Assembly: GCA_039683575.1 (NCBI GenBank) | Contig: JBDKRC010000021.1 | Span: forward strand, 1-51,274 | DNA from: Armatimonadia bacterium | GTDB lineage: Bacteria > Armatimonadota > Zipacnadia > Zipacnadales > UBA11051 | DNA: 51,274 bases | Reading direction: 5' to 3' | Shown here: piece by piece, positions 3,583-18,846 of the stretch | Layout of the letters: each line of letters opens with the position of its first letter | Numbering within the stretch: the stretch's first letter is position 1 | The notes under the pieces: generated by a model | What the model was told of the DNA's origin: nothing | Database searches by the model: none | What the model saw: only the letters and a program-made list of their open reading frames with translations | Program-made: the position numbers and the translations under genes

Positions 3583-5976
3583 TCAGGGGGCCGGTGAGAT
3601 CGTGAGGGTTTCAGACTGATAGATGGCGCTGAGGTCCAGTTCGCCGCGCGGGTCGGCCATTGCCACGTTGCGGCTCTCGCGGCCAGTGCGCCCGCGCATT
3701 GCCACCAGGTGCCGTGACGAGGGTGCAACTCGGTACGCCCCACTGCTCAGCACCAGCCGCAGCGGCGTTTCCCCCGCTCCTTCGACGTCAAAGCCCTTAC
3801 GCGCGTTGCGTACCATCGCGCCCCCGCCAAACACCCGCAGCACCACGCGCTCCGCGCCATACTCCTGAACCTCGACCGTAGCGTCTTCCGCGCGGGGCTG
3901 GACCAGCAGCGGAATCCGCATCAGGCGCTTCACCTGCCGCTCCGGCACCCTGGCCAGGATGAGCGCGGTCCCCGCGGGCAGCCCACGCTCAATGGGCGAC
4001 GCCATGAACTGCGCCACGGCCCCAAGGTAGGCCCGGCTGCCGGCAGCATACGCCGAGACTTGCCCCACCGCCAGTTCATCAGCCGCATTCAGAAGCTGCA
4101 ATCCCTCAGCGTCACCACTCATCTGCATTGTAGCGGGCAGCAGCCCCGTCTGCATCAGTTCATACGAGGCCCGGCGGCTCAGCAGGCTCGCGTGCAGAGC
4201 ACTGCTCAACGGGTCGGTCACCGGCCAGTACTGCCAGAGCGGATGCGTCGCAAACAGCCCGAGACCGCTGCCCTGCGCCCGGCCGATCAGTCCCGCGAAG
4301 TGCGGGACCTTCTCTTCATCGAAGCGCACCGACAAGGTCGCCACAGGCACCGCAGTCTCAAGTAGCGCGGCCTCGGCGGCCCAGCCGCTCACGGTCCAGG
4401 GTTTGCGCTCGGTGGCCGGGCCAGTGTTGCTCTTCCTGGCGCTGAACAACCCCTCTGATCTCGCGCCGGGATGCAGGCCGGGGAGACCGTGCAAGGCCGT
4501 GGCGCCGACGGTCAGGTCGCCCACGCGTTCGGTAAGGTCCCCCATCTGGGCGATGCCGAAGTACTGAGACAAGTCCTCCGGCAGCGTCGCCCAGGAGCCG
4601 CTTTCGTACATCCCGAGCCCCAGGTCGGCGATTGCCGCTCCACCCTTCCCAATGTATTCCTCCAACTGCACTGCCTGGGGTCTCGGCAGCCGCAAACATG
4701 CAGGAAGCAGGATGGCACCGTACTGGTCCAACTCAGCCTGCGGCAGGTCATCGACACACAGGTAGTCAACGAGACCGTACCGCGACCCAAACTTCAGGCA
4801 GTTGATCAGGGTGCTCGGTTCCCCCGGCAGCAGCCCGGTCAGGTAGCCATAGACGGGCTGGGACGTCACCGCAAACCCCTCGGCATACGGCGAGTACACA
4901 AGCGCTGTACTGGCCTTCGGAGCAACGCCGAAGGTCAGATCGCGCCACGAACTGACGTTGCGCGTCAGGTGGCGCTGCCGTACAGGGAGCCGCTGCTCGA
5001 GCTCGTATACTTCCGAGATCAGCGACCAGTCTTCCAGGGCAAAGCCGCTCGCGCCATGCAGCGCCGCCTGTGCTATCCAGTCCCGCAGCTTGTCCTGCGT
5101 GTATACAGGACTTGACCGATAAGGGACACGGAACACCGGCAGTGCCCCGAATCTTCCTCCGCGCCGCGCCATGTCAACCGCCTGCACGTTGTGGGCGTCA
5201 ACGTCGGCCTCAAGCACATCAGGCGGCATGGAGACGCACACCATATCGTAGCCGTCAGGGATCGAGGCCAGGCTGCGGTAGAGCGTCACACGCCCCGTCA
5301 GCACCGGGCGCTTGTCATCAACCGCTCGGATCGCCTCCAGCCACAGCTTCATCGTCTCGCGGAAGGCCCATACCTGGTATTCGGCCACATCCACCGACGC
5401 GCGCCCGACCTGGTAGGGGGTATTGGCATCAACCTTCCCCGCCTGTTCCCGCGTGATAGAGGGCCATGTGGGAAAGTTGGAGCCCCAGAAAGCGTTCAGA
5501 TCCCCCAGCGAGGGATAGCCTCGCTGCAGGTAGTGCCGGAAATCATCGTCCGAATACCGCAGGCTGCGCTCCAGCGAGTGTCCCGTCCCCCACGCCGTTA
5601 CGCCAGGCTCGTCCTTGAGCGCGGTTACGATATACCTGATGAGTTCGCGTACACTACCCGTGTACTGCTCATTGAGCGGGCTGACCTGATATGCACTGGT
5701 GAGACAGGTCGGCAGGCCGATGATGACTTTGAGGTTGTCCTTCTGGGCGGATCGAATGAGGGTGAGGCACGGCTGGAGATCGCTGACGTCGGAGGGTAGT
5801 AAGTCGATGTAGAGGGTATTGAGGCCCAGGTCCTTGATGGCCTGGGTGCTGCCACCGCGTTCGAGACCATAGCAGAAGGCGAAGGGCCCAACGCCCGGCT
5901 TGGCATGGACCGCCGTTGATAGCAGGCAGAAGGTGAGGTAGATGAGTGCGAACGGGAGTAGGCGTTTGGTGTTCAT
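3583..5976 (-). CDS. Secreted GH42/beta-galactosidase-like protein with trimerisation-type domain
   Basis: Signal peptide MNTKRLLPFALIYLTFCLLSTAVHA (ATG at 5976). FRHYLQRGYPSLGDLNAFWG resembles the GH42 'F..WL...Y..L..LN.AWG' motif. LDQYGAILLP/LEEYIGKGG resembles the GH42 middle domain. Confidence 0.55.
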   Translation of the reverse strand: MNTKRLLPFALIYLTFCLLSTAVHAKPGVGPFAFCYGLERGGSTQAIKDLGLNTLYIDLLPSDVSDLQPCLTLIRSAQKDNLKVIIGLPTCLTSAYQVSPLNEQYTGSVRELIRYIVTALKDEPGVTAWGTGHSLERSLRYSDDDFRHYLQRGYPSLGDLNAFWGSNFPTWPSITREQAGKVDANTPYQVGRASVDVAEYQVWAFRETMKLWLEAIRAVDDKRPVLTGRVTLYRSLASIPDGYDMVCVSMPPDVLEADVDAHNVQAVDMARRGGRFGALPVFRVPYRSSPVYTQDKLRDWIAQAALHGASGFALEDWSLISEVYELEQRLPVRQRHLTRNVSSWRDLTFGVAPKASTALVYSPYAEGFAVTSQPVYGYLTGLLPGEPSTLINCLKFGSRYGLVDYLCVDDLPQAELDQYGAILLPACLRLPRPQAVQLEEYIGKGGAAIADLGLGMYESGSWATLPEDLSQYFGIAQMGDLTERVGDLTVGATALHGLPGLHPGARSEGLFSARKSNTGPATERKPWTVSGWAAEAALLETAVPVATLSVRFDEEKVPHFAGLIGRAQGSGLGLFATHPLWQYWPVTDPLSSALHASLLSRRASYELMQTGLLPATMQMSGDAEGLQLLNAADELAVGQVSAYAAGSRAYLGAVAQFMASPIERGLPAGTALILARVPERQVKRLMRIPLLVQPRAEDATVEVQEYGAERVVLRVFGGGAMVRNARKGFDVEGAGETPLRLVLSSGAYRVAPSSRHLVAMRGRTGRESRNVAMADPRGELDLSAIYQSETLTISPAP

Positions 5977-6007
5977 GAGGTGAGGCCTGCCCATCCGAGC
6001 GATCGCG

Positions 6008-6778
6008 TCACCCCTTGGAGGGATCTTCCTTGGGCTCGCTATCAGCTTGCAGGGCCCGAGGCAGCCACTCATCCTGCGTCTCGAGCGCATGACGGGCGGC
6101 AGCCTGCTCGGCTTTGCGCTTGCTCGGGCCGGTCCCGACACCGATGGTCACTCCGCCGAAGTGGACTTCAACCGTAAACTTCAGATCGTGGTCGGGCCCC
6201 TCGACGCCAGCCACATGGTACTTGGGCAACTGCCGCAGGTGGCTCTGCAGTAGCTCTTGCAGTCGGGTCTTGTGGTCGAAGTGATTGAAGCCTGGCTCGG
6301 CTGAGTGCTGTTTGAGGTCCAGATACGGTAACAGGAACTGGCGCGTCACTTCCAGGCCGGCAGCCAGGTAGATGGCGCCCAGCAGCGACTCGACGGCATC
6401 GGACAGGAGGGAACTCTTGGTGCGTCCCCCGGACTCTTCCTCACCGCGGCCGAGCATGAGATACCGACCCAGGTTCATCTTCTGGGCGATCTGCGCCAGC
6501 GAACCGGCGCGCACTGCCGCGGCTTTCGTTTTGGTGAGGATGCCTTCGGGGACGTCGGGGTTCTGGCGGAACAACTCGTCCGCCACAATGAGGTCCAGCA
6601 CAGCGTCGCCCAGGAACTCGAGGCGCTGGTTCGACTGGTTGGCATCCAAGCCATGCTCACGCACGTAGGAGCCGTGCTGAAACGCCAGCCGCAGGAGGTC
6701 GTCCGGCATGTCTGGCAGGTTCAACTCGCTTCGAACTTCGTTCCATTCGGGGACGGCCATGCCATCATCTCGCGCCAA
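6008..6778 (-). CDS. rnc: Ribonuclease III
   Basis: Signature NQRLEFLGDAVL; DAVESLLGAIYL; dsRBD KTRLQELLQ...GPSKRKAEQAAA. The start may be the ATG at 6760. Confidence 0.97.
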   Translation of the reverse strand: MARDDGMAVPEWNEVRSELNLPDMPDDLLRLAFQHGSYVREHGLDANQSNQRLEFLGDAVLDLIVADELFRQNPDVPEGILTKTKAAAVRAGSLAQIAQKMNLGRYLMLGRGEEESGGRTKSSLLSDAVESLLGAIYLAAGLEVTRQFLLPYLDLKQHSAEPGFNHFDHKTRLQELLQSHLRQLPKYHVAGVEGPDHDLKFTVEVHFGGVTIGVGTGPSKRKAEQAAARHALETQDEWLPRALQADSEPKEDPSKG

Positions 6779-6788
6779 AGGAGCGGCC

Positions 6789-8033
6789 CTAATCTTCCAT
6801 AAGCTTAACGATCAGTACCGCGTTGTGACCACCAAAGCCGAAGGAGTTGCTCATGCCGGCCTTCCCCTTGAACTCTCGATGCTCGCCAATGACCACGTCC
6901 GAGCCTACGGAGTCATCAGGGTCATTGCAGTTAAGCGTAGCGGGGACCACGCCTTCTTGGAGCATGCGCAGGGTCAGAGCCAACTCGGTGGCGCCGGTCG
7001 CGCCAAGCTGGTGGCCATGGATGGACTTGGTCGAACTGACTAGCGGACCATCGCTGCCGGGGGCAAACACCTGTGTCAGGGCTCTGGCTTCCATGTCGTC
7101 GCCGTTGGACGTCCCGGGTGCATGGGCGTTGACGTAGGCGACGTCTTCGGCGTTCAGCTTAGCGTGCTTCAGCGCAGCCTTCATGGCCCGCGCCGCGCCG
7201 CCGCCACAGGCATCCGGAGCGGTAATGTGATAGGCATCGCCGCTCATGCCGTAGCCGACCAACTCGCCAAGGATATTGGCGCCGCGCTCCCGGGCATAGT
7301 CGAGGTCCTCAAGAATCATGGTCGTCGCGCCCTCACCGATGACGAAGCCATCACGGGTGCGATCGAAGGGACGGCAGGCCGTGAGGGGATCATCGTTGCG
7401 CTCTGATAGCGCCCCGGCCGAGCAGAAGCCCGACAGCGCGGTGCTGGTGACAGCCGCTTCGGCGCCGCCGCTGATCATGGCCTTGGCCATGCCACGACGG
7501 ATGATCTCGGCGGCCTCGCCAAGGGCGTGAGTGCCGCTGGCACAGGCGGTGACGACGGCAAGATTCGGGCCGCGCGCGCCGAATTCGATGGAGACCAGGC
7601 CGGAGGCCATGTCGATGATCATCATCGGCACCAGGAACGGACTGACGCGGTTGGGTCCGCGCTCCAGCAGAATCTGGTGCTGACGCTCCCACGTGTCCAT
7701 GCCGCCGATCCCTGAGCCTATCAGGACGCCGATGTCATCACAGTTTGACTCGTCGATTACGAGCCCCGATTGCTCGAGAGCCATCTTGGTGGTGTACAGA
7801 GCGTACCGCGCGAAGGGGTCGGCCCGCTTGATGAGCTTGGGGTCGAACTTCTCCTCAATATCGTCAAGGGGCGGCACCTGGGCTGCGATGCGCGTCTTGT
7901 ACTCTGAAGCGTCCATCTTTGTGATGGGGCCAATGCCGGACTTGCCGGCGAGGCAGTCGTTCCAGAGGGCGTCTAGACCAACGCCACTGGAAGATAGAGT
8001 GCCTATGCCTGTGATGACTACGCGATTGCTCAT
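6789..8033 (-). CDS. fabF: 3-oxoacyl-ACP synthase II
   Basis: RVVITGIG, catalytic TACASG, YVNAHAPGT, KSIHGH, SNSFGFGGHNA. Confidence 0.97.
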   Translation of the reverse strand: MSNRVVITGIGTLSSSGVGLDALWNDCLAGKSGIGPITKMDASEYKTRIAAQVPPLDDIEEKFDPKLIKRADPFARYALYTTKMALEQSGLVIDESNCDDIGVLIGSGIGGMDTWERQHQILLERGPNRVSPFLVPMMIIDMASGLVSIEFGARGPNLAVVTACASGTHALGEAAEIIRRGMAKAMISGGAEAAVTSTALSGFCSAGALSERNDDPLTACRPFDRTRDGFVIGEGATTMILEDLDYARERGANILGELVGYGMSGDAYHITAPDACGGGAARAMKAALKHAKLNAEDVAYVNAHAPGTSNGDDMEARALTQVFAPGSDGPLVSSTKSIHGHQLGATGATELALTLRMLQEGVVPATLNCNDPDDSVGSDVVIGEHREFKGKAGMSNSFGFGGHNAVLIVKLMED

Positions 8034-8204: not shown

Positions 8205-8444
8205 TTAGCCCGAGACACCCTTCCCTTCAAGATAGCGGACGGCATCGCCGACGGTCCGAATCTTCTCGGCATCTTCGTCGGGGATGTCAACGTTGAACTC
8301 GTCCTCGAGGGCCATGACCAACTCGACGACATCGAGGGAGTCCGCCTTCAGGTCGCCGTCAAAGGAAGCGCTTTCGGTTACCTGGCTCTCCTCGACTTTG
8401 AGCTCCTTAGCGATCAACTGCTGCACGCGTTCGAACAACGCCAT
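8205..8444 (-). CDS. acpP: Acyl carrier protein
   Basis: [20 protein letters not shown] phosphopantetheine motif; GGAGGTG RBS. Confidence 0.98.
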
Positions 8445-8514: not shown

Positions 8515-9258
8515 TCACATTATGAGTCCGCCGTCGATGTTGAGGCACTGTCCGGTCACATAACCGGCCTCCGGTGAGGCCAGGAACGCGACGACTGCAG
8601 CGACGTCCTCGGGCGTGCCGGGACGGTGCAGCGGGATCCGGGTCAGCCACGCATCGCGGGCTTCCTCAGATAGTACGTGGGTCATGTTCGTCTGGATGAA
8701 CCCGGGCGCGACGGCGTTGGCGGTGATGTTGCGGCCGCCAAACTCCTGCGCCACGCTCTTGGTAAGAGAGATCAGGCCGCCCTTGGAGGCCGCATAGTTG
8801 GCCTGGCCGGCGTTTCCGCCCACGCCGACTACTGAGGCGATGTTGACGATGCGGCCGTACTCGGCCTTCATCATCGGGCGCACGACTGCCTTCGTGCAAA
8901 GGAACGCGCCCTTGAGGTTGATATTAAGCACGATGTCCCACTGCTCTTCCTTCATCCGCAGGAGCAGGCCGTCCTTGGTGATCCCGGCGTTGTTGACGAG
9001 AATGTCAATCTTGCCGAATTCGGCCATCGCAGCCTCGACCATCTTCTCGCAGTCATCGGAAGAGGTGACGCTGCCAATGGTGACGAGGGCACGGCGCCCC
9101 ATCGCTCGGATGTCAGCAGCCACACGCTCGGCACCCTCGGCGTTGATGTCGTTGATGACGATGTTGGCGCCCTGGGAAGCCATCTTCTTGGCGATGGACT
9201 CACCGAGGCCGCCGCCGGAGCCGGTAATGATCGCGACTTGGTCCTGTAGTGGCATCAT
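8515..9258 (-). CDS. fabG: 3-oxoacyl-ACP reductase
   Basis: TGSGGGLG, NNAGITKD, NYAASK SDR motifs; lies between fabD and acpP. Confidence 0.96.
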   Translation of the reverse strand: MMPLQDQVAIITGSGGGLGESIAKKMASQGANIVINDINAEGAERVAADIRAMGRRALVTIGSVTSSDDCEKMVEAAMAEFGKIDILVNNAGITKDGLLLRMKEEQWDIVLNINLKGAFLCTKAVVRPMMKAEYGRIVNIASVVGVGGNAGQANYAASKGGLISLTKSVAQEFGGRNITANAVAPGFIQTNMTHVLSEEARDAWLTRIPLHRPGTPEDVAAVVAFLASPEAGYVTGQCLNIDGGLIM

Positions 9259-9282
9259 GTTCGGAACCCTCAATAGTTGCGG

Positions 9283-10209
9283 TTAAGACTGTAGTGCGGC
9301 TACGACGTCGGCGATCGCTTCCGGGCCATCGGCATTGTAAGCCGCCACGTCCGGCGCGCTTCGCTTGAGCATGTTGGCCAGGACCTTGCCGGGACCGACC
9401 TCGATGAAGGCGGTCACGCCCATGGCTATCATGCGGTTAATGCTGTCATCCCAGCGGACCGAGCCGGTGAGCTGCGCGAGCAGGGCCTGGCGGATGCTCG
9501 CAGCGCTTGTGCGCTCGGCGGCGTCCACGTTTGAAACCAGGGGCACTGTCGCGTCCTGCAGATCCACCTGCGCCAGCACCTCAGCAAAGCGGTCGGCAGC
9601 AGGCTGCATGAGCGGCGAATGGAAGGCGCCACTGACGTTCAACGGCATCACGCGCCGAGCGCCAGCCTCGGACGCTAGTTCGGAAGCGCGCCTGACAGCC
9701 GGCTCTTCACCGGAAATCACGATCTGCCCGGGGGCATTCAGGTTCGCCACGCAGACGATGCCGACCTCCTGGGCCTGCGCGACCGCCTGTTCCAGAGCCT
9801 CACGGTTCAGGCCAATCACGGCGGCCATCGTCCCGCCAACCTGCTGGCCGACCTCGGCCATGAGCTGCCCGCGGATCCGCACCAACCGGGCTGCGGCAAC
9901 TGCGTCGAGACAACCTGCGGCGACAAGAGCGGAGTACTCACCCAGACTGTGCCCTGCCACCACGGCAGGCCCTATGCCCTGTTCCTGCAGCACAGCGTTC
10001 ACGGCGACCGAATGCGCGAGCAGCGCCGGCTGCGCGTTCTGCGTCTGCGTCAGGTCCTTATCCGGCCCCTCGAACATGAGAGTGAGCAGGCCCAGCAGTG
10101 TACCCTCGATGTCGTCGAGGACTGCTTTGGCGGTGGGCGAGGTCTCATAGAGACTGCGGGCCATGCCGACCGATTGTGATCCCTGTCCGGGGAAGATGAA
10201 GGCGATCAT
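9283..10209 (-). CDS. fabD: Malonyl-CoA:ACP transacylase
   Basis: FPGQGSQ, GHSLGE, SGAFHS, EVGPGKVL. Confidence 0.97.
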   Translation of the reverse strand: MIAFIFPGQGSQSVGMARSLYETSPTAKAVLDDIEGTLLGLLTLMFEGPDKDLTQTQNAQPALLAHSVAVNAVLQEQGIGPAVVAGHSLGEYSALVAAGCLDAVAAARLVRIRGQLMAEVGQQVGGTMAAVIGLNREALEQAVAQAQEVGIVCVANLNAPGQIVISGEEPAVRRASELASEAGARRVMPLNVSGAFHSPLMQPAADRFAEVLAQVDLQDATVPLVSNVDAAERTSAASIRQALLAQLTGSVRWDDSINRMIAMGVTAFIEVGPGKVLANMLKRSAPDVAAYNADGPEAIADVVAALQS

Positions 10210-10233: not shown

Positions 10234-11430
10234 CTACTGGCCGAGTTCCTGCTTGAGCTTGCGGGTCAGCGCCGGCACGACCTCGAACAGGTCGCCGACG
10301 ATCCCGTAGTGTGCCACCCCAAAGATCGGGGCGTCGGGGTCGCTATTGATGGCAACGATACAGTCGGAGGAGCCCATGCCCGCCAGATGCTGGACCGCGC
10401 CGGAGATGCCGCACGCGATGTACAGCTTGGGCTGAACCGTCTTGCCCGTCTGACCGACTTGGTGGTAGGCGGGGATCCAGCCAGCATCAACGGTGGCGCG
10501 GGAGGCGCCGACAGCCGCGCCGATGACTTCGGCGAGCTCGCGAATGAGGGCAAAGTTCTCGGCCTTGCGCAGGCCGCGGCCGCCGGAGACGATGATCTCG
10601 GCGTCCTGCACGTCAATTGCGTCCGTGCCCTCTTCCTTGATGATCTCGATGATCTTGGTAGCGATGGACTTCTCGTTGAGATTGACCGTCTCGCGGATGA
10701 TTTCGGCGGTGCGGGAGGCGTCAGGCTGCGCCTTCTTCATCACGCGGGGGCGCACCGTGGACATCTGCGGCCGGGCGTTGCGGCACTGGATGGTGGCCAT
10801 GACGTTGCCGCCGAAGGCCGGGCGCGTCTGCTGCAAGAGCCGCGTCTCGGGATCGATGGCGAGGCCGGTGCAGTCGGCAGTAAGGCCGGCGCCGATGCGA
10901 GCCGCGATACGGGAAGCCAGGTCGCGCCCCATGGTGGTCGCGCCGATGAGCACGATCTCCGGCTTGTGCTTGTTGATGAGGCCGCAGATGACGCTGGTGA
11001 ACGGGTCGGTCCGGTACTGCGCGAGCGTCTCATGCTCGACGAGGTAGACCTTGTCCGCGCCATACTGCGCCGCGATCTGCGCCAGGCCCTCAACGTTCTG
11101 ACCGGCGAGGACCAGCGAGACTTCGGTGACGAGTTCGTCCGCGAGCTTCCGGCCTTCGCTGAGCAGCTCAAGCGTAACGTCCGCAAGCTTGCCATCATGC
11201 GTCTCGGCCAGCACCCACACGCCCGAATAGAGGCTCGTGTCTACCTCTTCCTTGCGCTGCACTTCGAGGACGATCGCACCGAACTTGCAGCTTCCAACGC
11301 AGGCGCCGCAGCTAGTGCAGTCATCGGTGAAACGGGCCTTGCCGTCAACAACCTCAACCGCGCCGTAAGGGCAAGCGCTCACGCAGAGCTTACAGCCCGT
11401 GCATTTGTCAATGTCTATGTAGATGCCCAT
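10234..11430 (-). CDS. etfA: Electron transfer flavoprotein alpha subunit with N-terminal 2x[4Fe-4S] ferredoxin domain
   Basis: [12 protein letters not shown] and [11 protein letters not shown] motifs, then [39 protein letters not shown] at 11430 with GGAGG RBS. Confidence 0.95.
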
Positions 11431-11505
11431 TGCGTCAGACGACCTCCAGGCGAACAATCAAACGGTGTATGGAGGGGCCGAGCTTCAGCCGGCCCAGCCC
11501 GGCAG

Positions 11506-12288
11506 CTAGATAACCTGCTTCTCGCGCAGCTTGCCTACGAGCTGCTCGACGACCTCGGCGGCCTCGCCCTCGAGGCGCTCGCCCTGCGAGTGCCGCTGCG
11601 GCGCGAAAACGCGCACAACATTGGTCGGCGACCCATTGAGCCCGCAGCGCCCGGTGTCCGCGCCGATGTCCTCGGCGGTCCACGACGGGATTTCCTTCTT
11701 GCGGGCCTTCATGACGTTCTTGAGGCTGCCGTGCCGCGGCTCGTTCATCTGCTTGACCACGGTGATCAGACACGGTAGACGCGTCTCAACGATCTCAAAG
11801 CGGTCGGACAGCAGCCGCTTGACCTTCGCCTTCTTGCCCTCGACTTCGAGGTCGATAGCGTAGGTGACCTGCGGGATGCCGAGATGCTCGGCCAGACCAG
11901 GGCCAACCTGCGCCGTGTCGCCGTCGAAGGCCTGCTTGCCGCAGATGATGAGGTCATAGTCGGCGATCTTCTTGACCGTCTGTGACAGCGTGTAGGAAGT
12001 GGCGAGGGTGTCGCTGCCGGCGAAGGCACGGTCGCAGACGAGAATGGCCTCGTCAGCGCCCATGGCCAGAGCGTCGCGCAACGCCTGTTCGGCCTGCGGC
12101 GGGCCCATCGTGATGACAGTGACCTTGCCGCCGTGCTTCTCGACAAGCTGCAGCGCGCATTCGATCGCGTTCTCATCGAAAGGATTGATGATGCTCGGTA
12201 CGCCCTCACGCACCAGCGTGTTGGTTACCGGATCAATCTTCACTTCCGTGGTATCCGGGACTTGTTTGATGGAAACGATGATATTCAT
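11506..12288 (-). CDS. etfB: Electron transfer flavoprotein beta subunit (bifurcating-type motif)
   Basis: MNIIVSIKQVPDT, INPFDENAIE, DRAFAGSDTLATS, CGKQAFDGDTAQVGP, GLNGSPT. Confidence 0.95.
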   Translation of the reverse strand: MNIIVSIKQVPDTTEVKIDPVTNTLVREGVPSIINPFDENAIECALQLVEKHGGKVTVITMGPPQAEQALRDALAMGADEAILVCDRAFAGSDTLATSYTLSQTVKKIADYDLIICGKQAFDGDTAQVGPGLAEHLGIPQVTYAIDLEVEGKKAKVKRLLSDRFEIVETRLPCLITVVKQMNEPRHGSLKNVMKARKKEIPSWTAEDIGADTGRCGLNGSPTNVVRVFAPQRHSQGERLEGEAAEVVEQLVGKLREKQVI

Positions 12289-12404
12289 ATAGTCAGGTTC
12301 CAAAGGTCAGGTTTCGGGTCTCAGGTCTCAGGCTGTGCCCGATGCCAGGCGGCCGCCTGACGAAGACGTGGGGAGGAGCTACCGCCCCTCCCCACGAGGT
12401 GTTA

Positions 12405-13562
12405 CTACTGCTTGGTGATGGCTTCCTTGAGGAGCTCGATCGCGATAACGTTGCGCTGGATCTCAGAGGTGCCCTCAACGAGCTCGAACAGCTTGCTCTC
12501 GCGCAGGTACCGCTGGACGGCGTGGTCGCAGATGTAGCCGTGGCCGCCGTGCATGTTGACCGCGCGGTTGCAGACGCGGGCGCAGACCTCGGAGGTGTAG
12601 ACCTTGGCCATGGCCGCGATCTTGCTCAACTCGGAGTTGCCCGTATCCTTGCACCAGGCCGCCTTGCGGGCGAGCAGCCGGCCGGCCTCAATCTCCATCG
12701 CCATGTCGGCGATCTGGTGCTGAATGGCCTGGAACTGGCTGATCTTCTGGCCGAACTGCTCCCGGATCAGCGCGTACTTCACGCCATCGTCATACGCCTT
12801 CTGTGCCAGACCGACAGCGCCGATGGCCATGCCGATGCGGCCGATGTCGAGCAGGTCCATGGCCACGCGGAAGCCGCGGCCTTCCTTGCCCAGCACGTTC
12901 TCAACCGGAACTTCAGCGTCCTGGAAGATGAGCTCGGTGTTCGGCACGCTGGGGAAGCCCATCTTGTGCTCGTTCTTGCCGATCTCAAAGCCCGGCATGC
13001 CCTTCTCGACGATGAACGCCGTCAGGCCGCGCATGCCTTTGGTCGGGTTGGCGTTGGCGATGACCACGTAGGTCTCCGCCGCGCCGCCGTTGGTGATGAA
13101 GATCTTGGTGCCGTTGAGGATGTACTTGTCGCCGACCAGCTTCGCCTTGGTCTTGACGGAACCCGCATCGGAGCCTACATCGGGCTCGGTGAGGCCCATC
13201 GCGCCGATCTTCTTACCGGAAGCGAGGTCGGTCAGGTACTTCTCTTTCTGCGCGTCGGTGCCGAAGGAGAGAATCGGGTACATGCAAAGCATGTGAGCGG
13301 CGAAGACGGCGCCGCTGGTGGTGCAGGCGTGGGCGAGCTTCTCGCCAACGACGGCCCAGTCTACCCAGCTCATGCCCATGCCGCCATACTGCTCGGGGAC
13401 CGGCACTCCGAAGAGGTCCATGTCCGCCATCTTCTTTACATTGTCCCAGGGGAACGTAGCGGCTGCGTCCGTTGCCTCGGCCTTGGGGGCCAGGACGTCG
13501 TCACAGAATTCCTGTACGGCGTCGAGAATCTCCTGTTGTTCTTCGGGGAATCCAAAGTCCAT
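12405..13562 (-). CDS. Acyl-CoA dehydrogenase family flavoprotein (butyryl-CoA dehydrogenase-like); candidate enoyl-thioester reductase
   Basis: GLTEPDVGSD, LNGTKIFITNG, EHKMG, GRIG, REQFG, HGGHGY, catalytic Glu in ELVEGTSEIQR. Confidence 0.93.
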   Translation of the reverse strand: MDFGFPEEQQEILDAVQEFCDDVLAPKAEATDAAATFPWDNVKKMADMDLFGVPVPEQYGGMGMSWVDWAVVGEKLAHACTTSGAVFAAHMLCMYPILSFGTDAQKEKYLTDLASGKKIGAMGLTEPDVGSDAGSVKTKAKLVGDKYILNGTKIFITNGGAAETYVVIANANPTKGMRGLTAFIVEKGMPGFEIGKNEHKMGFPSVPNTELIFQDAEVPVENVLGKEGRGFRVAMDLLDIGRIGMAIGAVGLAQKAYDDGVKYALIREQFGQKISQFQAIQHQIADMAMEIEAGRLLARKAAWCKDTGNSELSKIAAMAKVYTSEVCARVCNRAVNMHGGHGYICDHAVQRYLRESKLFELVEGTSEIQRNVIAIELLKEAITKQ

Positions 13563-13673
13563 CTAAGGCCTCCTGAATGTCGCACTAGCGCCGCCAGTTC
13601 CGCGGATTATCGTTTCGCCTTAAGCAAAGCACGATGGTCGGCCGGTCCTGCGCCTCTCACCGGGCATGAGGTA

Positions 13674-14666
13674 TTACTTCGTCCACTCCAGCAAGCCGCC
13701 GGCCAGCGAGAAACCCGCTCCGAATGAGACCAGCAACAAGTTGTCGCCGGTCTTGAGCTTGCCTTCCTTGTACAGATCGTCCATTGCCAGGGGAATTGTA
13801 GACGCCGAGGTATTGCCGTACCGCTCAACGTCGCAGTACACGCGTTCTTCGGGGATGTCCAGTCGCTTGGCCGCAGCCTCGAGGATCCTCCGATTGGCCT
13901 GATGGAAGACGCCCCAGTCAATGTCGTCGTGCGTGAGTCCCGCCTTCTTCATCACGGCTTCAGCGACCTCGGGACACCCGCGAACCGCGAGCTTGAAGAC
14001 CTCGTGGCCCTCCATCTTCATCGTGTTGCTCTTCTCGCGGAGCACCTGCTCGTCGCAGGGATACCGGCTGCCCCCCTTCGGGATCGAGAGGTACTGCCAG
14101 TTGCTGCCGTCCGACCACAACTCGAAGGCTTTGAGCCCCTTACCGGGCTCTCCGGGGCCCACAACGACAGCTCCGGCCCCGTCACCAAACAGCACGCATG
14201 TCGCCCTGTCTTCCCAGTCAACGATCCGCGAAAGCGTCTCCGCCGCGATGACCAGAACGTGATCTGCCATGCCGCTGGTGACATACGCCGTCGCCGTCGC
14301 CAGCGCATAGATAAAGCCGGTGCACCCGAGGTTCAGATCGAAGGCACCCGCGTTGGTAGCCTCGAGCTGGCCCTGTACGAGGGAGGAAACAGAGGGGAAC
14401 GGCATATCAGGCGTAACAGTGGCGACGATAATGAGGTCAAGGTCGGTGACGGCAATACCGGCATCGGCCACCGCCGCGCGCCCAGCCGCCAGCGCCAGGT
14501 CGGAAGTTGCCTGATCCGGAGCGATGATATGCCGCTCTTTCATACCGGTATGACTATAGATCCACTCATCGGTGGTGTCGACGATCTTCTCGAGATCGGC
14601 ATTGGTCAGTATCCGCTCGGGAACATATGATCCCAACCCGATAAGCTGCGCGCCTCGTAACTCCAT
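13674..14666 (-). CDS. fabH: 3-oxoacyl-ACP synthase III
   Basis: Catalytic triad motifs LGCTGF, FHQAN, YGNTSAS; FGDGAGA. Confidence 0.96.
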   Translation of the reverse strand: MELRGAQLIGLGSYVPERILTNADLEKIVDTTDEWIYSHTGMKERHIIAPDQATSDLALAAGRAAVADAGIAVTDLDLIIVATVTPDMPFPSVSSLVQGQLEATNAGAFDLNLGCTGFIYALATATAYVTSGMADHVLVIAAETLSRIVDWEDRATCVLFGDGAGAVVVGPGEPGKGLKAFELWSDGSNWQYLSIPKGGSRYPCDEQVLREKSNTMKMEGHEVFKLAVRGCPEVAEAVMKKAGLTHDDIDWGVFHQANRRILEAAAKRLDIPEERVYCDVERYGNTSASTIPLAMDDLYKEGKLKTGDNLLLVSFGAGFSLAGGLLEWTK

Positions 14667-14790
14667 ACAAGCCACCTGGGGTGAAACCCGAGCTGTGCAT
14701 CCACCTCACTTTCCACTACGACACAACCCCGGTGAGTCCGCTAATGGCATGCCCGCCGGACTGGCTGCATGCCTCCCTGACGAAAAAAGA

Positions 14791-15810
14791 CTACTGCGAC
14801 GCGGCCATCGACTGCTTCGTCGCGTACTGCTCAAACGACTGCGCCATATGCGTCTGTACCTGGCTCTTCACGCCTGTCGCTGCCACCACGATCGCCTTGG
14901 CAATGGCCCGGGCGTCAGATTTGCCGTGGGAGATGATACAGACTCCGTTCACGCCCAAAAGCAGCGCGCCCCCATACTCCGCGTAGTCGTACTTGGCCCC
15001 CATCTGTCGCAGCGCCGGAGCCAGGAAAAACGCCCCCAGCTTCCCCCACACGCTGCCCTTGATGGCGGCTTTGAGGTCGTGCATGAAACCACTGCCGACC
15101 CCTTCACAGACCTTCAGGACCACATTGCCGACAAATCCATCGCACACGGTCACATCGACCGCGCCCTCCACTATCTGCTCGCCCTCGATGTTGCCGATGA
15201 AGTTGAGCGGTGCCCGCTCCAGCAGTGGAAAGGCCGCCTGGGTAAGGTCATTACCCTTGCTGCGTTCAGTGCCAATGCTCAGAAGCCCTACGCGGGGGTT
15301 AACGACGCCCAGCACGTGCTCGCAAAACACGCTTCCCATCAGGCCGAACTCAACGAGATGCTCAGGCTTGCACTCAACGTTGGCGCCTGCATCCAAAACG
15401 ATGCGCTTGCCGATATCGGTGGGCAACGTAATGGCGATTGCCGGACGCTGCACGCCAGGGAGCGTCCGAAGCCGCATTGTAGCCGCAGCCATCATGGCCC
15501 CGCTGTTGCCCGCAGAAACTGCGGCGTCGGCGGCGCCGTCGCGCACCAGATCAACGGAAACCGTTACCGAAGACCCCGCCTTCTGGCGCAGAGCCAACAG
15601 CGGGCTCTCCCCCATCTCGACAACATCTTCGGCATGATGTATGAGCAGGTTGGATGGGCGCGCGCCGAGCTTGGCCAGTTCGGCCTCAATCACCGGCTGC
15701 CGGCCCACCAGGATGATTTCTCCGTCCACCTGTGAGGCGGCTAACACGGCTCCAGCTACGACCGCGCCGGGGGCATGGTCACCGCCCATTGCATCCACGG
15801 CTATCTTCAT
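14791..15810 (-). CDS. plsX: Phosphate acyltransferase PlsX
   Basis: MKIAVDAMGGDHAP, SAGNSGA, DAGAN, CDGFVGN, GGALLLGV. Confidence 0.97.
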   Translation of the reverse strand: MKIAVDAMGGDHAPGAVVAGAVLAASQVDGEIILVGRQPVIEAELAKLGARPSNLLIHHAEDVVEMGESPLLALRQKAGSSVTVSVDLVRDGAADAAVSAGNSGAMMAAATMRLRTLPGVQRPAIAITLPTDIGKRIVLDAGANVECKPEHLVEFGLMGSVFCEHVLGVVNPRVGLLSIGTERSKGNDLTQAAFPLLERAPLNFIGNIEGEQIVEGAVDVTVCDGFVGNVVLKVCEGVGSGFMHDLKAAIKGSVWGKLGAFFLAPALRQMGAKYDYAEYGGALLLGVNGVCIISHGKSDARAIAKAIVVAATGVKSQVQTHMAQSFEQYATKQSMAASQ

Positions 15811-15946
15811 TGATTCACCTGAAACTACCTTAGGGCAGGTCGCCCGGTCGGCAAGCACGTACGGAGGCCTGAAGCAAGTTTGCGCCACGGGCCGAAGCAT
15901 CCGCGGCAGTCAATCATTGCTCACGACAGATCAATCGGGGCGGGAG

Positions 15947-16147
15947 TTACGACTTTTCCTGCTCTTTGGTCTTGATCGTGTGGTCGACCTGCTGACCCTT
16001 GTAGTAACCGCACTTGCTGCAAGCATTGTGGGGCTTAACGGGCGCGTGGCAGTGGGAGCATTCCGTCACGGCAGGGGCCGTCAAAGCATCGTGAGTCCGG
16101 CGCTTGTCTCGCCTCGTCGGCGAGTGTCGCCTCTTCGGTAGCGGCAT
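15947..16147 (-). CDS. rpmF: 50S ribosomal protein L32 (zinc-binding type)
   Basis: MPLPKRRHSPTRRDKRRTH; CSHC...CSKCGYY; AAGGAG RBS. Confidence 0.96.
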   Translation of the reverse strand: MPLPKRRHSPTRRDKRRTHDALTAPAVTECSHCHAPVKPHNACSKCGYYKGQQVDHTIKTKEQEKS

Positions 16148-16194: not shown

Positions 16195-16704
16195 CTAGAG
16201 CTTCAAATTCTTCAGCGCCGCCCAGCGCGGGTCAGGCTCGGTCTCGCCGCAGTCGCACGGACCCTCGTTGAGGTCCTTGCCGCACCGCAGACACAGTCCG
16301 GGGCATTCTTCGCGACAAAGCGGGCGCAGGGGCAGGTTCATCGCAATGAGCTGGCGCACCAGTTCCGTCAGGTCCAGTTCATCGCCACTGAGGATAGGTA
16401 TCTGACACAGTTCGTCCTCGCTCTCGGCGTAGGCCTCTGGGTCATCAACCTGTCGGAGCGCACAGACTTCGTTGACGTCGATCTCCATCGTGTCTTCGAA
16501 GACGCCCAGGCAGCGTCCGCATTGCAGCTCCAGCGGTACCCACAGCGTGCCACGGACGGCGATTCCACTATCCGTGTTCGAGAGCTTCAACGACCCTCGC
16601 ACCGGACCGGCGGCCACCGCCCCTGTTGCCGGAGGCGCCTCCGCCTCCAATTCCACCGTCATCTGCCCCGCGTGCTGCCGCAGCGGGCCAAGCTGGTAAC
16701 GCAT
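16195..16704 (-). CDS. yceD: DUF177/YceD family protein
   Basis: CGRCL; PLCREECPGLCLRCGKDLNEGPCDC; DPRWAAL; canonical position upstream of rpmF. Confidence 0.92.
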   Translation of the reverse strand: MRYQLGPLRQHAGQMTVELEAEAPPATGAVAAGPVRGSLKLSNTDSGIAVRGTLWVPLELQCGRCLGVFEDTMEIDVNEVCALRQVDDPEAYAESEDELCQIPILSGDELDLTELVRQLIAMNLPLRPLCREECPGLCLRCGKDLNEGPCDCGETEPDPRWAALKNLKL

Positions 16705-16756
16705 AATGCGAAACGCGGCCTCATGAGCCGCGATGTCTACTCCCCTTTGTCGGTTG

Positions 16757-16786
16757 AGTATACTCCACCTGCGGAATCATTGTCAA
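16757..16786 (-). promoter_or_regulatory. Sigma70-type promoter of the yceD-rpmF-fab operon
   Basis: Minus strand TTGACA (16786-16781), 18-nt spacer, TATACT (16762-16757). Confidence 0.75.
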
Positions 16787-16801
16787 GATAACCACAAGCC
16801 G

Positions 16802-17668
16802 TCAAGCACCCTCTGCAAGTCTCCTGAGAAACTCGTGATTATCCCCGTGTCCCGTCCTCAGAGCCACTATTCGGCCCTCTACAGGCCGTCCGCACACATA
16901 CAGGTCGCCTAACAGGTCCAGCAGCTTGTGCCGTGCCAGCGCCTGCGGCAGTGTCGGCTGCTCCGACATCCGGTCATCATACACGATCAGGCAAAGCGCC
17001 TCCACCTCCGGCCCCGGTTCCATCCCCCGAGTGCTGCGTATTTGCTCCGCAGTAGCCCAGGTCCGCGCCGGCGCAACCTCTGCCCCGAAATCATCCCCAG
17101 CCCCAAACTCCGCCCATTGCCGCCCAATCACGGGATGCGGATGCTCAAGCACATAGGTGAAGACGGAAGAGGATCCTGTGGAGGATGATCCTGCGGGAGG
17201 GGTCTCTGATCCCGGCTGTTCCAGAGGCAACCCTATCAGTGCCTGCCCTTCCTCCACCAGCCACACCGGCTCCGTCACTTCTATGGCCTCAATCGCCTCT
17301 GCCGAGCCCCTCCGCCCAGCTTCACCAACCGCCGCCCAGAGCCCTCTCCCGCTCCCATCATAGAGCGGTATCTCCGGCCCGTCGGTGCTGATCACCGCAT
17401 CCGTGACCTCCGCCGCCCACAGACACGCCAGCAGGTGCTCCATGAAGGCGACCTGCCCCGTCTCATCCCCGAACGCAGTGCAGTTGGTCGCCGGCACCAG
17501 GTACTCCAGCCCGACCGGCCACTCCTGCCCCGTATCTTCCCGCTTCACCCGCAGCCCCGCCCCCACTTCCGCCGGCAGGAGCCGCACCGTCACCGGCCGC
17601 AAGCACAGCGTCCCCACGGCCGGCGGGAGCGCTACAGCATGGTCGAAGGTACCGCGCCTATGCGTCAC
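16802..17668 (-). CDS. lpxC: UDP-3-O-acyl-N-acetylglucosamine deacetylase (divergent)
   Basis: MEHLLA, EIPLYDGS, APARTW, RHKLLDLLGDL (HKxxD Zn motif), GHGDN. GTG start at 17668 overlaps the upstream gene's stop. Confidence 0.85.
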   Translation of the reverse strand: MTHRRGTFDHAVALPPAVGTLCLRPVTVRLLPAEVGAGLRVKREDTGQEWPVGLEYLVPATNCTAFGDETGQVAFMEHLLACLWAAEVTDAVISTDGPEIPLYDGSGRGLWAAVGEAGRRGSAEAIEAIEVTEPVWLVEEGQALIGLPLEQPGSETPPAGSSSTGSSSVFTYVLEHPHPVIGRQWAEFGAGDDFGAEVAPARTWATAEQIRSTRGMEPGPEVEALCLIVYDDRMSEQPTLPQALARHKLLDLLGDLYVCGRPVEGRIVALRTGHGDNHEFLRRLAEGA

Positions 17669-18846
17669 AGCGCCTCCTCCAGGATCTCCATCAATGTCGC
17701 CAAGCTCGTATCGCCCGGCGTGCTCGCCAGCGCACCGGCCATATAGTCGCAGGCGCCCTGTGCCATCTCGGGGAGCTTCTCCGCCTCCACGCCCAGGTCG
17801 CTCAGGTGGATATCGAGGCTCACTTTTTGCAGCAGCGCCCCGATAGCCTCCTCCGCTTTCTCCGCGGCTTCCTCTGTCCCCCACTCCTCAGTCTCCTCCG
17901 CCAGTAGCCGCGTGATTGCGGCGAGCTTCTCCGGCATCCTATTCGCCATTCTCTTCGCCCACGGCCGCAGCATTGCCGCCAGCCCCGCCCCGTGCGCCAC
18001 GTGCGGATAGTGCGCGCTGACCGGGTGCTCGAGTCCATGCATGACCGTCGCCCCGCAGGACGCCAGCCCGTAACCCGCGAAGGTGTTGGCCAGCATCATC
18101 TGCTGCCTAGCCTCCACGTCATGCCCATTCGCCACCGCCCGCGGCAGGTACTTGCCAACCAGCCGGATCGCCTCCTGGCTCATCAGGTCCGTCACCGGCG
18201 TCGCGCAGTTATGGACGAAAGACTCCAGCGCATGGCACAGCACGTCCACACCCGTCGCCGCGGTCTGCCCCGCCGGCACAGTGTACGTCAATTCCGGGTC
18301 CTCAATCGCTACTTTGACCTGTATGTAGTCGCTCCGAATGGCGCTCTTTTGCTTCCGGTCCTCAATAGTCAGCACCGCAAACGGCGTCAACTCAGACGAC
18401 GTCCCCGCTGTCGAGGTCGCGCAGATGACCGGCAGCGTCCGCTCCGTCGGCGCCTGCTTCGGCGCCCCCTCCTCTTCCACCATGAACCGCCGGATCGGCA
18501 GGTCATGCGTCGCCCCGACGGCCATCGCCTTGGCCGCATCCATAACGCTGCCGCCCCCCAGCGCCACGACCACGTCGCACCCCGCCTCGCGTCCCACTGC
18601 CGCCCCACGGTCCACTATCTCGGTCGTCGGGTTGGAGGTCACGCCTCTGAACCACGTCACCGCCACGCCCTGCGCTTCCAGCATCTCCCGCGCCCGCTGC
18701 ACATGCCCCGATGCTTCGAGCGAACCGGTGCCGCTCACCAATAACGCCTTCTTGCCAAAGGCCGCCGTGACCTCACCGAGCTTACCAAACTTACCTTCTC
18801 CGAAAATCAGCCTTGTCGGCGCGCGAAACTCAAACTCCATTGTCAT
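17665..18846 (-). CDS. Iron-containing alcohol dehydrogenase
   Basis: ALGGGSVMDAAK, TAGTSSE, DVLCHALES, HGLEH, HGAGLA. Confidence 0.92.
   Translation of the reverse strand: MTMEFEFRAPTRLIFGEGKFGKLGEVTAAFGKKALLVSGTGSLEASGHVQRAREMLEAQGVAVTWFRGVTSNPTTEIVDRGAAVGREAGCDVVVALGGGSVMDAAKAMAVGATHDLPIRRFMVEEEGAPKQAPTERTLPVICATSTAGTSSELTPFAVLTIEDRKQKSAIRSDYIQVKVAIEDPELTYTVPAGQTAATGVDVLCHALESFVHNCATPVTDLMSQEAIRLVGKYLPRAVANGHDVEARQQMMLANTFAGYGLASCGATVMHGLEHPVSAHYPHVAHGAGLAAMLRPWAKRMANRMPEKLAAITRLLAEETEEWGTEEAAEKAEEAIGALLQKVSLDIHLSDLGVEAEKLPEMAQGACDYMAGALASTPGDTSLATLMEILEEAL

Follow-up and report, generated by a model that had tools for sequence, protein, structure and literature searches.

A putative Etf-dependent enoyl-ACP reductase of the acyl-CoA dehydrogenase fold in the fatty acid synthesis operon of an Armatimonadia bacterium

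The window analysed here is a stretch of 51,274 nucleotides from an uncultured anaerobe, an Armatimonadia bacterium (GenBank assembly GCA_039683575.1, contig JBDKRC010000021.1), in which the genes for an acyl-CoA dehydrogenase-fold flavoprotein (ACAD) and for both subunits of an electron-transfer flavoprotein (Etf; genes etfB and etfA) stand inside an operon for type II fatty acid synthesis (FAS II). Based on four features that are directly observed, the gene content, the position in the operon, the ACAD subfamily and the phyletic complementarity with known enzymes, we propose that this module is likely to be an Etf-dependent, probably electron-bifurcating, enoyl-acyl carrier protein (enoyl-ACP) reductase of the ACAD fold, which would replace FabI, FabK, FabL and FabV. 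A preliminary description of the same DNA had suggested that the ACAD and the Etf perform the enoyl-reduction step of FAS II, and this suggestion gains support from evidence that is comparative throughout: the absence of known enoyl-ACP reductases (ENRs), synteny, and complementarity between genomes. The ACP-bound substrate, NADH as the electron donor and bifurcation would follow by analogy with related complexes.

The operon and the enoyl reductases of its genome

The module lies between fabH and fabD in an uninterrupted run of twelve co-oriented genes on the minus strand, yceD-rpmF-plsX-fabH-ACAD-etfB-etfA-fabD-fabG-acpP-fabF-rnc. Searches with Pfam and NCBIfam models place every gene of the run where the preliminary description had it, and the fab, pls and rnc assignments are above the NCBIfam cut-offs or unambiguous in Pfam. 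The gaps around the insert, estimated there at about 25-115 bp, measure 111 nt (fabH-ACAD), 101 nt (ACAD-etfB), 48 nt (etfB-etfA) and 24 nt (etfA-fabD). The ferredoxin domain fused to EtfA, absent from that description, was found here by Pfam. In the direction of transcription the genes are as follows.

16195-16704, minus strand: yceD (Pfam YceD)
15947-16147, minus strand: rpmF, ribosomal protein L32 (Pfam Ribosomal_L32p)
14791-15900, minus strand: plsX, phosphate acyltransferase (TIGR00182, 379 bits)
13674-14675, minus strand: fabH, beta-ketoacyl-ACP synthase III, upstream neighbour of the insert (NF006829, 418 bits; TIGR00747, 393 bits)
12405-13562, minus strand: ACAD, 385 aa, acyl-CoA-dehydrogenase-fold flavoprotein and proposed enoyl-thioester reducing subunit (Pfam Acyl-CoA_dh_N, _M and _1)
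11506-12303, minus strand: etfB, the small subunit of an electron-transfer flavoprotein of the bifurcating type (Pfam ETF)
10234-11457, minus strand: etfA, encoding a 2x[4Fe-4S] ferredoxin domain at the N-terminus and, after it, the ETF and ETF_alpha FAD domains (Pfam Fer4, ETF, ETF_alpha)
9283-10209, minus strand: fabD, malonyl-CoA:ACP transacylase, downstream neighbour of the insert (TIGR00128, 330 bits, above cut-off)
8515-9273, minus strand: fabG, 3-oxoacyl-ACP reductase (TIGR01830, 330 bits, above cut-off)
8205-8444, minus strand: acpP, acyl carrier protein with a DSLD motif, Ser36 (Pfam PP-binding)
6789-8033, minus strand: fabF, beta-ketoacyl-ACP synthase II (TIGR03150, 536 bits, above cut-off)
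6008-6778, minus strand: rnc, RNase III, final gene of the run (TIGR02191, 226 bits)

The assembly to which the window belongs comprises 6.23 Mb in 352 contigs and is 96.4% complete. The preliminary description had reported no fabI, fabK, fabL or fabV in the window and had proposed a model search of the whole genome; none of the four was found in the window or elsewhere in the assembly. The best FabK match in the genome scored 20 bits against a cut-off of 453, and the genome holds no member of the NMO family, hence no enzyme of the FabX type. For FabI the best model score was 79.7 bits (cut-off 337) and the E. coli protein found at best a 54-bit match of 29% identity, for FabL the best model score was 189.6 bits (cut-off 328), and the FabV model found nothing in this genome while scoring 580 bits in G048, a genome of the phylum sample, which served as positive control. 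The 189.6-bit FabL match was rejected as an ENR because the protein is of the FabG/acetoacetyl-CoA reductase type (TIGR01830, 321 bits); for comparison, the FabG of the window itself scores 155 bits on the FabL model. The short-chain dehydrogenase/reductase (SDR) candidates of the genome were inspected singly, and all 13 show the classical YxxxK motif as opposed to the Yx6K of FabI and FabL; one SDR whose sequence can also be read as Yx6K is a generic SDR and was rejected. When the ENRs of relatives (true FabI, divergent FabI and two FabL-like kinds) were used as queries, the genome returned generic SDRs at no more than 108 and 45 bits. No second ENR was found at the two other ketosynthase loci, on contigs C250 and C211. 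The former (L131:3975-10325, minus strand) is an unusual cluster that encodes, in order, the beta subunit of a 2-oxoacid dehydrogenase E1 (transketolase domains), a HEAT-repeat protein, the E1 alpha subunit, a 742-aa double ketosynthase-like protein, a FabG-like SDR and a small lipoyl/E3-binding-domain protein, and it may be a source of branched or special acyl primers.

FabZ is present on contig C6 as the single FabA/FabZ-family match. With FabD, FabH, FabG, FabF, AcpP and PlsX encoded in the operon, the FAS II of this organism is thus complete apart from the ENR, which is its sole gap. By tblastn the ACAD, EtfA and EtfB of this operon are the only ones that the genome encodes.

These counts bear on a rival explanation, that the module is an ordinary crotonyl- or short-chain enoyl-CoA reductase of the Bcd-EtfAB kind, serving energy metabolism or providing FabH with butyryl-CoA or another short acyl-CoA as primer, and merely co-located or co-regulated with the fab genes while the true ENR goes unrecognised. 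A thiolase (contig C323) and a 3-hydroxyacyl-CoA dehydrogenase (Hbd) with an adjacent CoA-transferase would suit such a role, but no crotonase of the enoyl-CoA hydratase (ECH) type was found in the genome; with no crotonase and a single ACAD and Etf, there is no sign of a classical butyryl-CoA pathway or of a beta-oxidation by which a CoA-dependent Bcd would be fed. Primer supply to FabH, which the preliminary description had named as an alternative, is weakened by the lack of a crotonase and of any other ACAD in this genome, and we regard a CoA-dependent reductase as unlikely overall. The only Hbd is encoded on contig C111 (L129:6697-8510), beside the CoA-transferase at the contig end; together with the thiolase, these genes look like an acetoacetate/3-hydroxybutyrate branch without crotonase.

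Synteny and complementarity in other genomes

To place the module in its phylum, 121 genomes of Armatimonadota were sampled. The closest ACADs in public genomes share 61-70% identity with that of the window and come from Armatimonadota metagenome-assembled genomes (MAGs). An ACAD of at least 59% identity is encoded in 14 of the 121 genomes, the window's own among them. Of the other 13, whose loci were examined, seven have the order yceD-rpmF-plsX-fabH-ACAD-etfB-etfA-fabD, and these seven are the complete set of sampled relatives from the window's order; one of the 13 loci lies on a contig too short to tell. Conservation of the fabH-ACAD-etfBA-fabD arrangement in relatives, a check proposed in the preliminary description, is therefore found throughout the sampled order. 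FabK scores above the cut-off in all five genomes of family f21, and in the three same-phylum FabK genomes whose operon was examined (G016, G044 and G030) it is encoded between fabH and fabD, in the order yceD-rpmF-plsX-fabH-FabK-fabD-fabG-acpP-fabF. The earlier statement that the module occupies the FabK slot thus holds literally within the phylum.

Other phyla were reached through the 80 best ACAD loci from public genome contigs. Among these, the insertion between fabH and fabD is present also in L013, L014 and L015, whereas one Syntrophorhabdales MAG and two 'Deltaproteobacteria' MAGs (L040, L044 and L047) have yceD-rpmF-plsX-ACAD-fabD-fabG-acpP-fabF, an operon that includes the ACAD and not fabH, which is hard to reconcile with a CoA reductase acting as primer source for FabH. 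Two Omnitrophota MAGs have fabG-acpP-fabF-ACAD-etfB-etfA and one further MAG (L091) has the ACAD directly after fabF. The same fabG-acpP-fabF-ACAD-etfB-etfA order was found in 16 of 20 further Omnitrophota loci, three of which have the full operon from yceD; of the remaining four, one is linked to rpmF-plsX and the other three show no such linkage, so that 17 of the 20 are fab-linked. That the ACAD is inserted at three different points in three phyla would be difficult to account for if it had no functional tie to FAS II.

The relationship of these ACADs was investigated with two trees, one of 109 sequences by FastTree and one by IQ-TREE of the 76 that remained when 33 near-duplicates were dropped. 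In the 109-sequence tree all 17 fab-linked ACADs fall into two clades, clade A (100), which is the Armatimonadota clade of the window, and clade B (95), which holds Omnitrophota, Syntrophorhabdales-type and further Armatimonadota families. The two stand apart from 68 classical Bcd-like sequences (FastTree support 84), none of which is fab-linked, and in the IQ-TREE analysis a single branch with an SH-aLRT value of 92 separates them from the rest, 40 classical Bcd sequences. The trees give moderate, not strong, support to clades A and B as a separate ACAD subfamily. A ferredoxin-fused EtfA accompanies the ACAD at 16/16 clade A loci, 9/10 clade B loci and 19/20 Omnitrophota loci, as opposed to 4/40 loci beside a classical Bcd.

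An inverse relation between this ACAD and the known ENRs, a second check that had been proposed, was found in two phyla. In Armatimonadota, ENRs were called by FabI-like matches at E <= 1e-35, FabK matches above the cut-off and the FabV model. An ACAD of clade A or B is encoded in 28 of the 121 genomes, and FabI-like, FabK and FabV are all lacking in 20 of these 28 carriers compared with 7 of the 93 others. Within the window's order, known ENRs are absent from seven of the eight genomes with a fab-linked module, the window's own included (six of the seven sampled relatives). We considered whether low-scoring FabI matches (151-181 bits) could be dismissed as noise, and rejected this, since ENR types with Yx6K, FabL-like or divergent FabI, were present in 7/7 genomes examined (G001, G054, G060, G108, G013, G083 and the non-carrier G005); such matches are counted as ENRs throughout.

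The Omnitrophota sample comprised 91 genomes, in which an ACAD orthologue was defined by at least 65% identity to a fab-linked query (L053). The ACAD is encoded in 43 of them, a FabI-like protein in 37 and a divergent FabL-like protein in six, and in five no candidate was recognised; the three candidates do not overlap and together cover 86 of the 91 genomes. FabK was above the cut-off in 0/91, and FabF was present in 91/91. The divergent FabL-like protein came to light through the fab neighbourhood in one of eleven genomes that had neither ACAD nor FabI, as a Yx6K SDR encoded two genes from fabF. Its orthologues (59-65% identity) are present in six of the eleven (G134, G159, G173, G197, G199 and G219) and absent from all 43 genomes with the ACAD and all 37 with a FabI-like protein, and it probably represents another under-recognised ENR clade. 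In G134 (L164:5825-6646) it fits FabL best among the NCBIfam families, with 141 bits (cut-off 328). Three alternatives that do not overlap form the pattern expected for non-orthologous displacement of an essential enzyme, and this exclusivity is unexpected for a primer or energy enzyme. Nor does a CoA reductase accord with the retention of the module beside fabF in Omnitrophota genomes of 0.7-1 Mb, or with five small Omnitrophota carriers (0.7-1.6 Mb), in which crotonase is absent from all five and the Hbd matches reach at most 25 bits, meaning no true Hbd; as in the window's genome, no classical route to crotonyl-CoA is left. Beyond these two phyla, eight of eleven genomes of other lineages that were reached through their loci have neither FabI nor FabK, and one has a 184-bit NMO match.

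The recurrence of the pattern also bears on whether a canonical or very divergent ENR was missed in the window's genome, either in the unassembled 3.6% or below the thresholds, with the module in another, still lipid-related role. An assembly of 352 contigs with 96.4% completeness leaves room for this, and the Omnitrophota FabL-like ENR did fall below the first threshold, being found only through its gene neighbours. However, random assembly gaps are unlikely to produce an absence that recurs in seven of eight fab-linked genomes of the order and in 43/43 Omnitrophota carriers, and all 13 SDRs of the genome itself were inspected one by one. We consider a missed ENR distinctly unlikely.

The module proteins, the proposed reaction and the points against it

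Among proteins of solved structure, the ACAD is closest to Bcd (4L1F, 359 bits; 5OL2_C, 357 bits), and CarC (6FAH_C, 293 bits) is only its 13th best match. Its predicted catalytic glutamate, E363 in the motif VEGTSEIQR, aligns with the Glu of the Bcd motif YEGT and is invariant in 10/10 orthologues. EtfB matches CarD (6FAH_B) at 285 bits, 5OL2_B at 264 and 4KPU_B at 256, and overall scores 218-285 bits against 6FAH, 5OL2, 4KPU, 7KOE and 7QH2 compared with 119-125 against the non-bifurcating 1EFP, 1EFV and 2A1T; for EtfA the corresponding values are 292-426 bits against bifurcating and 144-189 against respiratory Etfs. Against bifurcating Etfs, the FAD-FAD group that uses NADH, both subunits thus reach roughly double the score that they do against the AMP-containing respiratory ones, an assignment made by score alone. 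The PDB alignments of EtfB start at residue 6 (MNIIV), and its true start is likely the ATG at 12288. The best solved relative of EtfA is CarE (6FAH_A, 426 bits), aligned from residue 12 with the ferredoxin domain included, and two complete CxxCxxCxxxC motifs align with CarE residues 3-60. With the best matches of both the ACAD and the Etf being to Bcd and Car subunits, the three proteins are predicted to form a complex of the CarCDE/Bcd-EtfAB type.

Complexes of this type reduce enoyl thioesters with NADH and reduce ferredoxin alongside. By analogy with the solved Bcd-EtfAB and CarCDE, NADH would reduce the FAD of EtfB, from which one electron would pass uphill to ferredoxin, possibly via the two [4Fe-4S] clusters on EtfA, while the other would pass through the FAD of EtfA to that of the ACAD. 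The ACAD flavin, with Glu363 as acid/base, would then convert trans-2-enoyl-ACP to acyl-ACP, and reduced ferredoxin would be gained in every elongation cycle.

The ACAD might instead work in the oxidative direction, as an acyl-ACP dehydrogenase with the Etf as acceptor, producing trans-2-enoyl-ACP for anaerobic unsaturated fatty acid synthesis in the manner of FabX, or for some other lipid modification. ACADs do natively dehydrogenate, and the route to unsaturated acids is open in the window's genome, which has a single FabA/FabZ match and neither an ECH protein (no FabM type) nor an NMO protein (no FabX type). Such an enzyme, however, would leave FAS II without an ENR here, in 20/28 Armatimonadota and in 43/43 Omnitrophota carriers, the operon encodes no isomerase partner for it, and the Etf resembles the bifurcating, NADH-using type of the reductive Bcd and Car complexes. 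Taken together, we hold the oxidative role to be highly improbable and retain the reductive one.

Expression was assessed from the contigs of two metatranscriptome runs (X3 and X4) of one sample, from the same study as the best-matching DNA data, with 32 of 130 matching pieces listed. Among these, RNA contigs cover parts of the ACAD gene (12631-13628) and of etfB (12020-12289), and also parts of fabF, acpP, plsX and, as far as 16722, rpmF-yceD; over 16728-17500 no RNA contig is listed, whereas both DNA runs do cover that interval. Two promoter-like sites were identified by sequence.

16757-16786, minus strand: promoter-like site 5' of yceD (TTGACA-18-TATACT, 11/12 matches)
14553-14581, minus strand: second, weaker promoter-like match inside fabH, about 1 kb upstream of the ACAD gene (TCGACA-17-TATAGT, 10/12)

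The one clear promoter of the preliminary description thus stands as the strong site 5' of yceD, with the qualification that a weaker match lies within fabH. The RNA contigs agree with transcription starting at the yceD site and with expression of the module, as a weak hint, given that contigs cannot show transcript ends and that uncovered parts prove nothing. No terminator-like site was found on the minus strand within the run. Both RNA contigs over the start of the ACAD gene end in the gap between fabH and the ACAD gene, at 13599 and 13628; with these ends and the match inside fabH, the ACAD-etfBA module could conceivably be under separate control.

As for the surroundings of the operon, an LpxC-family gene (16802-17884) and an iron-type alcohol dehydrogenase gene (17665-18882) lie directly upstream on the minus strand; the former points to a lipid-A-bearing outer membrane and hence to hydroxy-fatty acids that the same FAS II would have to provide. 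An 852-aa open reading frame 3' of rnc (3583-6141, minus strand) has no Pfam family at E <= 0.001, and in its listed form it shares 134 nt with the end of rnc, which makes a true start further in probable.

Several observations weigh against an ENR function of the module. The ACAD is nearest in sequence to the CoA-dependent Bcd (about 359 bits) and not to ACADs that act on carrier proteins (AnaB, 4IRN, 235 bits), and CoA-dependent Bcd and CarC, its nearest solved relatives, are what a CoA reductase would resemble. It also falls outside the curated models of carrier-protein ACADs, scoring 57 bits on MbtN (cut-off 700), 270 on RedW (650) and 272 on PigA (500). Clade A ACADs are acidic, with net charges of -5 to -23, at first sight unexpected for a partner of the acidic ACP, and comparison of the subfamily sequences revealed no convincing basic patch or change of the CoA site, the net charge being more negative rather than more basic. 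Only two subfamily-specific positions, D49 and R209, separate clades A and B from classical Bcd. The window's ACAD keeps D49 (Gly in classical Bcd) and has T209 (12936-12938), where about 90% of clade A and B proteins have Arg and classical Bcd has Cys, Ser, Val or Leu. A complex prediction of two ACAD copies with AcpP, with alignments of both, scored 0.13 against a mark of 0.32, in a run without controls, and weighs on neither side of the question of binding. No RNA contig among the pieces listed bridges the fabH-ACAD or etfA-fabD junction.

The distribution has its own exceptions. Orthologous ACAD-etfB-etfA modules stand away from fab genes in five genomes of the same class or of family f27 (G054, G092, G045, G106 and G058), as a CoA reductase would allow. 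An SDR-type ENR is encoded in eight of the 28 Armatimonadota carriers: a true FabI accompanies the module in G013 (same order, fab-linked; 289 bits) and G083 (301 bits), and in the remaining six the ENR is FabL-like or a divergent FabI, with Yx6K confirmed in four (G001, G054, G060 and G108). In other lineages, a true FabI is found beside the module in G123 (432 bits) and G127 (274 bits). Weak NMO/FabK-like matches of 124-238 bits are seen in 5/28 Armatimonadota and 6/43 Omnitrophota carriers and could represent divergent FabK; the window's genome has none. Furthermore, seven Armatimonadota and five Omnitrophota genomes have FabF with neither a recognised ENR nor this ACAD, a finding that also favours a CoA reductase; unknown or very divergent ENRs must exist in these, one could hide in the window's genome, and the argument by elimination is not airtight. 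Genomes that share kinship are not independent cases, and the Armatimonadota pattern may reflect one or two events, the Omnitrophota pattern a split between two large clades. Two of the seven Armatimonadota genomes, the well-assembled G073 and G047 of family f28, have a plain fab operon with the ENR unaccounted for; the gene between fabF and rnc (L161:8025-9215 in G073; L162 in G047) was considered as their ENR and rejected, as it encodes a class I/II aminotransferase.

Relation to known systems

Enoyl-ACP reductase is the pace-setting step of bacterial fatty acid synthesis and a classic drug target. We also propose, with more hesitation and as somewhat short of probable, that the ACAD with its ferredoxin-fused bifurcating Etf constitutes a fifth ENR class that turns the most exergonic step of fatty acid synthesis into reduced ferredoxin, making lipid synthesis energy-conserving in strict anaerobes, and that it is the main ENR in part of the Armatimonadota, about half of the sampled Omnitrophota and Syntrophorhabdales-type Thermodesulfobacteriota. 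If true, this would supply the 'missing gene' for lipid synthesis in several uncultured phyla and correct reconstructions that show their FAS II as incomplete, and flavin-based electron bifurcation, known from catabolism, would reach into core anabolism as well. For energy-starved anaerobes whose genomes are tiny, one reduced ferredoxin per C2 unit would be a real saving, and engineered anaerobic fatty acid production would gain a new enzyme. Three or four genes would be enough to put the hypothesis to a direct test.

A 2022 review of ENRs covers four classes, FabI, FabK, FabL and FabV, plus metagenomic SDR variants, and it mentions neither acyl-CoA dehydrogenase nor electron transfer flavoprotein, flavoprotein or ferredoxin (PMC9260719). 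A full-text literature search, whose reach excludes subscription journals and supplements, returned no description of an ACAD- or Etf-dependent ENR. The FabI, FabL and FabV enzymes catalyse the reaction proposed for the module, and FabI- and FabL-like proteins are distributed in mutual exclusion with it in Omnitrophota, although they are of an unrelated SDR-type fold, transfer hydride directly from NAD(P)H and are absent from the window's genome. FabK, an FMN-dependent TIM-barrel, shares with the module the fabH-fabD slot, the flavoprotein nature, the typical occurrence in anaerobes and the proposed reaction; it differs in being a single subunit with no link to Etf or ferredoxin, and there is no homology (best match 20 bits genome-wide).

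The ACAD fold is known to act on phosphopantetheine-tethered acyl groups, and MbtN, the RedW/PigA prolyl-PCP (peptidyl carrier protein) dehydrogenases, AnaB (4IRN) and TcsD (6CXT) are precedents in this respect. Unlike the proposed enzyme they are oxidative and belong to secondary metabolism, and they are weaker matches to the ACAD than Bcd (4IRN, 235 bits; 6CXT, 228 bits). We know of no carrier-protein ACAD that works with a bifurcating Etf.

Car acts on phenylpropenoyl-CoA in respiration. CarCDE, the caffeyl-CoA reductase-Etf complex of Acetobacterium woodii (PDB 6FAH), has the same composition as the module, an ACAD-fold reductase, EtfB and an EtfA with an N-terminal two-cluster ferredoxin domain, whereas the genes of the module sit in a fatty acid synthesis operon with acpP and CarC ranks only 13th among the solved matches of the ACAD (293 bits). 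Bcd-EtfAB, the electron-bifurcating butyryl-CoA dehydrogenase complex with which clostridia reduce crotonyl-CoA (Clostridioides difficile 5OL2; A. fermentans 4L1F and 4KPU), provides the best ACAD matches, the same Glu motif, a bifurcating Etf and enoyl-thioester chemistry. In contrast to the module, the EtfA of Bcd is without a ferredoxin domain (4/40 classical Bcd neighbours have one), the ACAD here falls in a separate subfamily, and the usual partners of Bcd are thiolase, Hbd and crotonase, the last of which is absent from the window's genome. The substrate of Bcd is crotonyl-CoA, whereas that proposed for the module is ACP-bound, from C4 to C16-18. As a machine the module is a variant of the known Bcd and Car complexes, and as an ENR it would be a new, fifth and unrelated class.

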